A stretch of DNA of 7,931 nucleotides from contig NW_021828537.1 in the NCBI RefSeq assembly GCF_006345805.1, positions 1-7,931 of the forward strand, in the 5' to 3' direction. A program made the position numbers and the translations under genes. Under the pieces are notes generated by a model. That model was not told where the DNA came from, ran no database searches, and saw only the letters and a list, made by a program, of their open reading frames with translations. Numbering within the stretch: the first letter of the stretch is position 1; each line of letters begins with the position of its first letter. Positions 1,012 through 7,739 of the stretch are shown here, one piece after another. The DNA comes from Octopus sinensis (lineage: Eukaryota).

Positions 1012-1066
1012 TAGCAAAAACTGTCTGATGACGGCAACGAGAAACTCAGAGTAACAGATTTTGTTG
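1012..1066 (+). ncRNA. Minimal type I hammerhead-like motif with degenerate stem II
   Basis: Stem I is CUGU (1021-1024) / ACAG (1054-1057), extended past an A-A mismatch by UAGCAAAA/UUUUGUUG. Core CUGAUGA 1025-1031; stem II region CG-GCAA-CG-A; GAAA 1041-1044; near-palindromic stem III ACUC-A-GAGU (1044-1052); triplet GUA 1051-1053. Confidence 0.6.
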
Positions 1067-4191: not shown

Positions 4192-4335
4192 ATAACCTCT
4201 GACGAAGCCTATGGTTCTTTTAACATATAAGTATTATTTTTTTTTAATGCCTACGACCCTAGTATGTTGACATCTATAGGCAATGAAAATTAGATTCACT
4301 TTTGACCATAGGCTGAAACAGCTGTAAGAAGTCAT
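4192..4335 (+). ncRNA. Type I hammerhead-like motif with 10-bp stem II enclosing an about 89-nt insertion
   Basis: Core CUGACGA 4199-4205. Perfect stem II AGCCUAUGGU (4206-4215) / ACCAUAGGCU (4305-4314) abuts both core halves. GAAA 4315-4318; palindromic stem III ACAGCUGU 4318-4325; triplet GUA 4324-4326. Stem I is weak (AUAACCU / AG[AA]GUCAU). Confidence 0.7.
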
Positions 4336-4812: not shown

Positions 4813-5159
4813 TTTGTATGCTTTTGATGTTCACATTTGTAAAATGAATAAATAATCTAACATTATAATATCCGTAAGTTGATGAACAAACTAAATTTGT
4901 TTCTCCATTTTCTTATTTGTATTATAAATTTACGGTAAAAATATTTCTTTACCTTCACCCGTTTAATACAATAAATGAATTAATTGCATTGCAATTAATG
5001 TATTAAGAATTTGGGTACTTTACCAACAGTATATTGGATAAATGATATCCCATAGTGGGTTACACCCATAACCCCTATCTTACTTTGTACTTTATATATA
5101 TATATATATATGCATATACACACATACATAGTCATATATATATGTATATGTATATGTAA

Positions 5160-5420: not shown

Positions 5421-5554
5421 AAAAACAATAATGATAATAATAATGGTAACAGAAAAGAAGAATTTCGATTATCTCCACATGGTGAGTTGTAATGTATATA
5501 AAAAAAAAAAAAGGAAAATACGCACACTTACATAGTTTTAATATATTTTTTAAT

Positions 5555-5589
5555 ATATCGACCGGTTTCGCTATCGCTATTCATGATAT
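5555..5589 (-). ncRNA. 35-nt minimal type I hammerhead-like motif with A3-U8 core variant
   Basis: Minus strand reads AUAUC-AUGAAUA-GC-GAUA-GC-GAAA-CCGGUC-GAUAU. It has a 5-bp stem I, a 2-bp stem II closed by G10.1-C11.1, a palindromic ACCGGU stem III and a GUC triplet. The core differs from CUGANGA only at positions 3 and 8. Confidence 0.65.
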
Positions 5590-5808
5590 TATGTTTTACT
5601 TATTTGAATATATATTTTTTTTTAAGAAGAAATTCTGTCCATGTTGTGTGTGATGAAATTCACGAGTGAATGACTTCACAAGTAGATAAATAAAGGGAGG
5701 TAATTGGTTGTCGTTACTATTGTTATTGTTGTGGGTAAGGGAGATAAGTGTTCAGCTTTCGGTAATGGGAGGGGAATATATATGTGTACAGGCAGAGAAA
5801 AGTTTGAG

Positions 5809-5922: not shown

Positions 5923-5991
5923 CATTGAGTGACTAATGGTTTCGCATCCATAAAGTGCTTAGCTTTATAGACAACTCATCAGACTCTAATA
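5923..5991 (-). ncRNA. Type I hammerhead ribozyme motif with intact catalytic core
   Basis: Minus strand: stem I UAUU[A]GAGU (5991-5983) / ACUCAAUG (5930-5923); core CUGAUGA 5982-5976. Stem II GUUGUCUAUAAAG / CUUUAUGGAUGC has 12 bp including G-U pairs, one bulge, a 7-nt loop and G10.1-C11.1 closure. GAAA 5943-5940; minimal stem III AC-CAUUA-GU; triplet GUC 5933-5931. Confidence 0.8.
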
Positions 5992-5992
5992 G

Positions 5993-7698
5993 CGGAGGGT
6001 ATGACCAGAGCCATTAATGGCTCGCCTACTGGAAAAACTCCAGGTTTCGATGGCACCCCACCAGAGATCATCAGATGTGCAAGGATAGTTCTATTTAGCC
6101 ACTTGCTGAAGCTACTGTGTCAGTGCTGGGAGGAGGGGTCAGTGCCACAAGACATGAGAGACTGCAACATTGTTACTCTGTATAAGAACAAAGGAGACAA
6201 AGGCAACTGCAATAACTACCGTGGCATCTCGTTGTTAAGCATCGCTGGGAAGGATTTTGACCGCGTGTCCCTAAACAGGCTACAGAAAATCGCTGAGAGG
6301 TATACCCCGAATCTCAGTGCGGTTTCCGATCAAAACCCACCACCATCGACTTGATCTTCTCTCGCCAACAGCTACAGGAGAAGTGCCGAGAGCAAAAAGG
6401 CAACCATTCTTTCATCACTTCATCGATCTCATAAAGGTTTTTGGCATAGTCATCAAAGATGGCCTGTTCAAAATCCTTTTCAAGATGGGCTGCTGCATGG
6501 CACCCCAAGACTCCTTAGGATGTCCATCATTCATTTCACGCGGACATGAAAGGCGTCGTTCAATTTGATGGTTCTTTTCGGAGGCTTTCAACATACGTAG
6601 CGATGTGAAGCAAGGCCATGTGCTTGCCTTGACCATGTTTGGCATCTTCTTTGCAGTCAAGCTAAAACATGTATTTGGAACATCAACTGATGGTGTTCAC
6701 CTCCACACCAGATCAAGAGGCAAAATGTTTAGTCTGTCGAAGCTGAAAACAAAATCCAGGGTTCGCCAGGTAGTCATCAGAGAAACGCTGTTCGCGAACG
6801 ATGCAACACTGACAGCGCACCCTGACGAGCAAATGCAGCTTCCCGTGGAGTAATGGGTCTAAGTGCCAACCCCACTATCACCATCATTATCTATAGGCCG
6901 GAGGTAGTCCATCAATTCACCTATCTCGGTTCTATCATCGCTGATTACCTCTCTCTGGACCCTGAGATCAACAGGCGAATCGGACAAGCATCCTCCACAT
7001 TTGCCAGGCTCACAAAGAGAGTCTGAAAAAACAAAAATCTGGCTGCAAACACCAATATTGATGTATATAGGGCGTGCGTCCTTGTTACGCTACTTTATGG
7101 TAGTGAGACGTGGAGTCTCTACTCCAGACAGGAACGGCGTCTCAACGTCTTTCACTTCGTTAATTTGAGACGCATCTTGGATATCAAGTGGGCTGACCAC
7201 ATTACCGAAGTCCTCAACTGAGCCAAGATACCCAGCATACTCACCCGCTCCCAGCAGCGTCGTTTGCGTTTGGCTTGGTCATGTACGTCTCATGCCAGAC
7301 AGAAGGATCTCAAAAACTCCCGTATGGGGAATTGGCCACCGGACGCCTGAGCAGGAGAACGATCTCATCTTCGTTTCAAGACGTCTGTTAAAGGGATATA
7401 AAATCGCTTGATCTGGTCGTCCCTGAGATGGGTTAAGGTTGCAAATGATTGCCCACACTGAAGACAAATACTGCAAAAGGGGATGAAGAAAGCGGAAGGA
7501 ACTCGCCACCAAAGAAAAACGCACTCGACGGAAGGAAAATTCAGGAGCGCCGGCAGAGAGCTCCTTCAAATGCAACCGGTGTATAAGTCACTGCCACTCC
7601 TGCGTGAGCCTATAACAGATGCTGCACCACCATCAGCAGCTGACACGATTTCTTCGGGCGCAGATCCATGGCCTCTCGAGAACGACTGATGCCTGCCT
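5993..7698 (+). mobile_element. 5'-truncated, decayed RTE-clade LINE (reverse transcriptase pseudogene)
   Basis: RTE-type motifs appear in order across frames: GKTPGFDG, VPQDMRDCNIVTLYKNKGD, NNYRGISLLSIAGK, QCGFR, FIDLIKVF, VKQGHVLA, LFAND (YADD-box), FTYLGS, LLYGSETW, WLGHV and a C-terminal CxxC. There are many frameshifts and stops, an apparent deletion near 6840-6850, and no APE endonuclease. The 3' end runs into (TA)n. The 5' boundary is uncertain by about 25 bp. Confidence 0.95.
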
Positions 7699-7739
7699 AT
7701 ATATATATCTATATATATATAATAGAAATATTAAAATTA

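Follow-up and report, generated by a model that had tools for sequence, protein, structure and literature searches.

A hammerhead ribozyme motif whose core pair between positions 3 and 8 is A-U, in place of the canonical C-G, is the settled state of a whole family of retrotransposon tails in Octopus sinensis. [quoted passage not shown] It was met in a stretch of 7,931 nucleotides (positions 1 to 7,931 of contig NW_021828537.1, assembly GCF_006345805.1; hereafter the window), where it occupies 35 nucleotides and has the core AUGAAUA in place of CUGANGA. A preliminary description of this DNA had called it a correctly spaced minimal hammerhead without stating a strand, and this holds for the minus strand (Table 1). 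Read on the reverse complement, a 5-bp stem I is followed by AUGAAUA, a 2-bp stem II with a 4-nt loop, GAAA, ACCGGU, C17 and the partner of stem I, so that three stems surround the core in type I order. U4, G5, A6, A9, G12, A13, A14, the A15.1-U16.1 pair and an H at position 17 are all in place, and the short stem III is palindromic and would permit dimers, a trait of the minimal and dimeric hammerheads of PLEs. The literal C3 and G8 are replaced by A3 and U8, which still form a Watson-Crick pair; both deviations do fall on the 3-8 pair and leave it complementary, as had been proposed, and the remaining core positions are all canonical. An alternative register, taking C5585 as C3 followed by an insertion, was rejected, that C being part of the 2.1-1.1 pair of stem I.

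If the motif were a chance resemblance in AT-rich DNA, no hammerhead family would be expected to claim it, and Rfam indeed returned none at E <= 10, whether the whole window or positions 5500-5650 were scanned; this miss has little power, because the same scans also missed the window's two C3-G8 motifs. A descriptor accepting any base at positions 3, 7 and 8 hits the window once and gives no hit when 500 dinucleotide shuffles of both strands are scanned, the motif sits at the expected place in the tail of a PLE, and a related metagenome element (L247) carries a canonical C3-G8 homologue whose stem III is identical. Chance can be regarded as refuted.

The motif belongs to the last 366 bp of the retrotransposon, which has simple repeats at both ends and matches many other loci at 87-95% identity. 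The copies have their 3′ ends in (TA)n and are truncated at variable points on the 5′ side, and inverted partners accompany several of them. Longer copies elsewhere encode a reverse transcriptase (RT), then a CX4CxxC linker and then a C-terminal GIY-YIG endonuclease, as is typical of endonuclease-positive PLEs, all of which the window copy lacks. Among these other copies PF01541 scores above its Pfam cut-off and PF00078 (29.1 bits) just under its own (29.6), and the motif lies some 300 nt behind the GIY-YIG stop codon. The nearest named proteins come from cephalopods. The Neptune-clade PLEs described in PMC8557442 are alike in their RT, CX2-5CxxC linker, C-terminal GIY-YIG domain, microsatellite-adjacent insertion, 5′ truncation and inverted partners. 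The octopus element, with its linker before the endonuclease and (TA)n at its 3′ ends, thus appears to be Neptune-type, a label that rests on the linker motif and the target bias, Neptune and Nematis not being separated by a named-reference tree. Many A3-U8 copies contain stops or frameshifts. The window copy is a truncated solitary fossil and probably inert itself; the target of selection was the element that replicated and not a dead copy such as this one. A non-LTR (long terminal repeat) retrozyme, made of non-coding head-to-tail tandem units, does not fit, as the copies are tails of a coding element. One locus (L391) that could have passed for an A3-U8 element with two repeats was rejected as well, being two separate insertions of different subfamilies. 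Only two of the collected regions show short head-to-tail tandem copies of the A3-U8 tail, L133:4654-5743 (544-545 bp) and L134:3766-4193 (427 bp), where dimers could form inside one transcript.

Among the outcomes that, in the preliminary description, would undo the idea of a selected core are that the sequence is unique, or that the family is C3-G8 with independent scatter of substitutions, and neither of these is the case. The 35-mer with positions 3, 7 and 8 left free has 216 exact matches in the genome, and among the first 100 listed 95 are A3-U8, three A3.C8, one A3.A8, one C3.U8 and none C3-G8. A looser A3-U8 pattern finds 870 genomic matches against a single one for the control, drawn from subfamilies with N7 and loop 2 of their own; viral contigs gave no A3-U8 match. 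A sample chosen independently of the motif agrees with this. From the 150 best endonuclease matches, 90 copies were drawn (the top 30 and 60 picked down the list), 81 of which cover the motif; with one set aside as a spurious alignment (L324), A3-U8 is found in 77/80 and C3-G8 in 0/80. Across these copies, columns with a second allele at 10% or more number 0/19 in the core, stem II and stem III compared to 57/236 in the flank (Fisher p = 0.009), the 19 columns excluding N7, loop 2, position 17 and stem I as free to vary. N7 and loop 2 vary while the core columns stay fixed, and the deviations that individual copies do show in the core are mostly at the CpG to which G12 belongs. Contigs of four public runs, under four organism labels, span the stretch, and in the rows listed neither 5584 nor 5579 has a common variant.

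Stem I adds evidence from within the A3-U8 lineage. Its 2.3-1.3 pair is A-U in 68 and G-C in 9 copies, and its 2.5-1.5 pair A-U in 55 and G-C in 11 (n=83 for both). Pairing holds in 91% of cases, compared to at most 32% in slid controls, and changes on both sides of a pair fill 16 cells against 4.0 in shuffles, a value reached by 0/500 of them; shared ancestry inflates these counts, so that two independent swaps are well supported and not 16. The 2.3-1.3 swap accompanies a 16-nt deletion behind C17, which supplied the new 3′ strand. These compensations arose after the 3-8 swap, within the A3-U8 lineage. They bear on the possibility that the motif is a dead relic, i.e., that a master element no longer in need of its ribozyme fixed two substitutions by chance, which were then passively copied. 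In favour of a relic, PLE clades with no canonical hammerheads amplify well according to PMC8557442, some related families (the L197-L225 group) show no hammerhead within 1.4 kb of the endonuclease, and the folding energies given below are unremarkable. A relic, however, would hardly compensate its stem I, nor keep its core columns fixed while the untranslated regions (UTRs) of the subfamilies fell to 67-86% identity, and three further paired states exist among the relatives with no mismatched lineage found. The covariation of stem I largely refutes this explanation, which we consider very improbable.

The relatives in question were found by tabulating homologues at positions 3 and 8, which gives U3-A8, G3-C8 and A3-U8 families and few mismatches; the preliminary description had anticipated C-G, U-A and A-U with few mismatches. 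A pattern excluding A3 and U8 has 1346 genomic matches, against 12 for the control; in the first 100 listed, 89 are U3-A8 and three U3-G8. The U3-A8 family has an endonuclease 59-67% identical to that of the A3-U8 family; its UTR gave no blastn match to the A3-U8 family's 3′ UTR, and still, over the 21 positions of the core, stem II and stem III outside the loop, 3 and 8 are the only two at which its representative departs from the window motif. G3-C8, with 107 matches (control 15), marks an older and decayed family (40 loci fetched, L345-L384) of several subfamilies, with 60% protein identity, a 7-bp stem I and A17. A young subfamily of the U3 family combines the U3-G8 wobble and A17 with intact long open reading frames (ORFs) (L235:975-1010 and 4954-4989; L169, L239). 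In the U3 family intact frames of 811-923 codons stand in head-to-tail units of 3979 bp, and L235, with this period, has a terminal repeat with the hammerhead on either side of the ORF. Mismatched states are rare and scattered over the families, with 38 matches for A3.A8 (control 6) and 26 for U3.U8 (control 18).

In a midpoint-rooted tree of 329 columns and 30 rows, from which two short G3-C8 rows were dropped, the G3-C8 family is sister to the A3-U8 family (support 97/93), and grouping it with the U3 family is rejected (p-AU 0.04). U3-A8 occupies the branches around this clade (L229, L232/L233, L226/L240 and metagenome element L249), and the C3-G8 metagenome element L247 is an outgroup. Deeper in the tree, support is moderate (84/71, 86/94), and it is weak where the U3-A8 family meets the purine-3 clade (84/71). 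With this topology, the A3-U8 swap likely came from U3-A8 and not directly from C3-G8. The preliminary claim of a selected compensatory core is supported by the state of the family and the paired relatives, with the amendment that its immediate background is U3-A8 or G3-C8, not C3-G8. The simplest path in this clade would lead from C3-G8 to U3-A8 by transitions via U-G, then by a single flip to purine-3/pyrimidine-8, and then to and fro between A3-U8 and G3-C8 by transitions via G-U. A-U and G-C may have arisen in either order, because an A3-U8 copy is found in the G3-C8 family (1/3 unselected copies), as is a G3-U8 copy at one of the selected loci. C3-G8 motifs that share the stem III of the A3-U8 motif also occur in this genome (96, against 6 for the control). 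Most of them belong to a tandem repeat of ~360 bp, for which 30 loci gave no match to PLE proteins, and they were rejected as parents.

How the swapped pair could keep catalysis follows from what is known of the active fold, in which the 2′-OH of G8 acts as general acid and G12 as base (PMC6155905), and in which alone C3 and G8 pair (PMC3884650). Since nucleotide 8 acts through its 2′-OH and pairs with 3 in the active fold, a swap that preserves the pair can preserve the reaction; the base at 8 would need only to pair with 3, and any Watson-Crick pair would be tolerated. Two motifs in a tandem transcript would join by their ACCGGU palindromes and cleave behind C17, thereby trimming or releasing the element RNA. 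Przybilski and Hammann are said to have reported in 2007 that any Watson-Crick 3-8 pair is active, one ribozyme preferring pyrimidine-3/purine-8. In the Poseidon PLE of Anolis, C3G and G8C each abolish cutting and the double mutant partly restores it, and cutting needs the protein of the element, yet is dispensable for insertion in vitro (PMC11167929). PLE minimal hammerheads are described as cutting weakly and slowly, as dimers (PMC4209133; PMC6765202).

The last Anolis result leads to the possibility that the fold is kept for a non-cutting job, such as RNA dimerisation through the palindrome or a site at which the RT-endonuclease binds or is positioned, with negligible cleavage. Catalytic mutants of the Anolis element left in vitro insertion unaffected, and no RNA-seq reads ended at its cut site (PMC11167929); the octopus relatives carry A13C (in a family of at least 1510 copies), U3-G8 and A17 beside U3, which may lower activity; and no cut signal is seen in assembled contigs. 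Also in its favour is a possible ground-state pair of U8 with A13, which may form here by analogy with the G8:A13 pair of PMC6257768. On the other hand, it is the 3-8 pair, made in the active conformation alone, that covaries, and families with UTRs too divergent to be aligned still share U4, G5, A6, A9, G12, A14 and the 15.1-16.1 pair. A purely non-cutting job therefore seems unlikely to us, though it is the main alternative.

Several observations weigh against a self-cleaving A3-U8 ribozyme in a regular PLE, beyond the shared ancestry behind the covariation counts and the weak branch of the tree. The monomer folds no better than shuffles (z = +0.73, with 152/200 shuffles as good). Two 35-mers do have the double-hammerhead fold as their lowest-energy cofold (-13.3 kcal/mol), and 228/300 shuffles dimerise as well as the motif; when 76 nt of flank are included, A-U-rich hairpins displace stem I. 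Stem II is of 2 bp directly after A9, with neither the extra 9/10.1 nucleotide nor the long helix typical of PLE minimal hammerheads, and two terminal repeats around the ORF are found in none of 20 long A3-U8 copies. No pile-up of starts or ends is listed at 5560, where contigs of runs guessed to be RNA cross the predicted cut, contigs being poor at showing ends. Two contigs of one run start at 5559, but this is a base away from the predicted cut and close to a point where subfamilies differ, and they were given no weight. Finally, the related PLE family with C13 (GCAA for GAAA, with U3-A8, in 99 of the first 100 listed; e.g., L231:2996-3035 and L233:4043-4082) means that this clade tolerates a non-compensated core change too, for this one is fixed.

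Several known systems come close to this family. The minimal hammerhead ribozymes of PLEs described by Cervera and de la Pena in 2014 (PMC4209133) are likewise of type I, with a short stem I, a palindromic short stem III and G10.1-C11.1, and lie in the terminal repeat region of mostly solitary truncated copies. They typically have an extra 9/10.1 base and a long stem II, some examples being without the extra base, whereas the octopus motif is without both. The representatives compared from Fig. S3 of that paper are C3-G8, U3-A8 or U3-G8, with a U3-A8 family reported in Schistosoma mansoni; the octopus family differs by A3-U8, and its relatives add G3-C8 and A13C to the variants. Natural 3-8 covariation and weak 2-bp stems II were also described by Perreault et al. 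in 2011 (PMC3088659), whose section 8 reports only C3-G8 to U3-A8, keeping pyrimidine-3/purine-8. Here, in contrast, the pair is flipped, fixed in at least 870 copies and embedded in a tree. The hammerhead of Anolis is again terminal, protein-assisted and has a swappable 3-8 pair with partial rescue, but its swap was engineered (C3G/G8C) in another PLE clade (PMC11167929), while that of the octopus is natural. No natural A3-U8 or G3-C8 was found in the literature searched, most subscription papers being outside its reach, and the word ribozyme is absent from an octopus repeat annotation (PMC13282606).

Natural U3-A8 is therefore already known (PMC3088659, PMC4209133), and what is added here, at the level of sequence, is the fixation of A3-U8 in a family, covariation inside its lineage, and a tree with U-A, A-U and G-C together with an outgroup C-G. 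Pairing between 3 and 8 is what marks a hammerhead in its active conformation, and natural swaps of this pair were known before only to U-A. An A-U family beside G-C and U-A relatives is natural evolutionary evidence that pairing, and not the letters, is required, and points to selection for the catalytic fold in PLE hammerheads. These families also supply a matched series for kinetics. In this genome alone, a thousand motifs or more escape the standard search patterns. It is conceivable, and we suggest it only tentatively, that one PLE clade holds all four Watson-Crick 3-8 pairs together with U-G and A13C, each in a family of its own and each self-cleaving by means of a protein or dimer prop. 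If this is true, purine-3/pyrimidine-8 hammerheads would be a common class overlooked by CUGANGA and UUGANAA searches, and PLE clades said to be without hammerheads would merit a new search.

Table 1. Parts of the A3-U8 hammerhead motif and of its host element (window positions).
Feature	Positions	Strand	Basis
Minimal type I hammerhead motif with A3-U8 core pair	5555..5589	(-)	descriptor and family counts
Core box, positions 3-9 (A3 = 5584, N7 = 5580, U8 = 5579, A9 = 5578)	5578..5584	(-)	
Stem II, 2 bp (G10.1-C11.1 first), and 4-nt loop; loop differs among subfamilies	5570..5577	(-)	
G12-A13-A14 and self-complementary 6-nt stem III; predicted intercopy pairing in the dimer	5561..5569	(-)	dimer cofold
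C17; predicted cleavage 3′ of the base, between 5560 and 5559	5560	(-)	analogy with hammerhead numbering
Stem I, 5′ strand (partner 5559-5555); 2.3-1.3 and 2.5-1.5 covary across subfamilies	5585..5589	(-)	
5′-truncated 3′ end (3′ UTR / pseudo-LTR (pLTR) region) of Neptune-type Penelope-like retrotransposon with motif	5440..5805	(-)	

Other elements were seen in the window and in the loci collected around it. The window holds, at 1021-1057 (+), a canonical C3-G8 type I hammerhead-like motif with a 4-bp stem I, the same motif occurring in L049 and its region matching L024, and, at 4197-4328 (+), another hammerhead-like motif, likewise C3-G8, in which stem II has a very long insert, stem III is a palindrome of 8 nt and stem I is short; this second motif folds better than shuffles (z = -2.8). 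On the strand opposite to the A3-U8 element, a broken ORF of a non-LTR retrotransposon runs over 5971-7700 (+); three fragments of it at 5971-7221 had no match in Pfam, and we take it to be RTE-like from the motifs it seems to contain. Among the collected loci, a related PLE family (L197-L225, L227, L238) has a microsatellite-like 3′ region of more than 1.4 kb, with no hammerhead found in that span. About 90 canonical C3-G8 hammerhead copies lie in a ~360-bp tandem or inverted repeat (L067-L096) that resembles a non-LTR retrozyme family.
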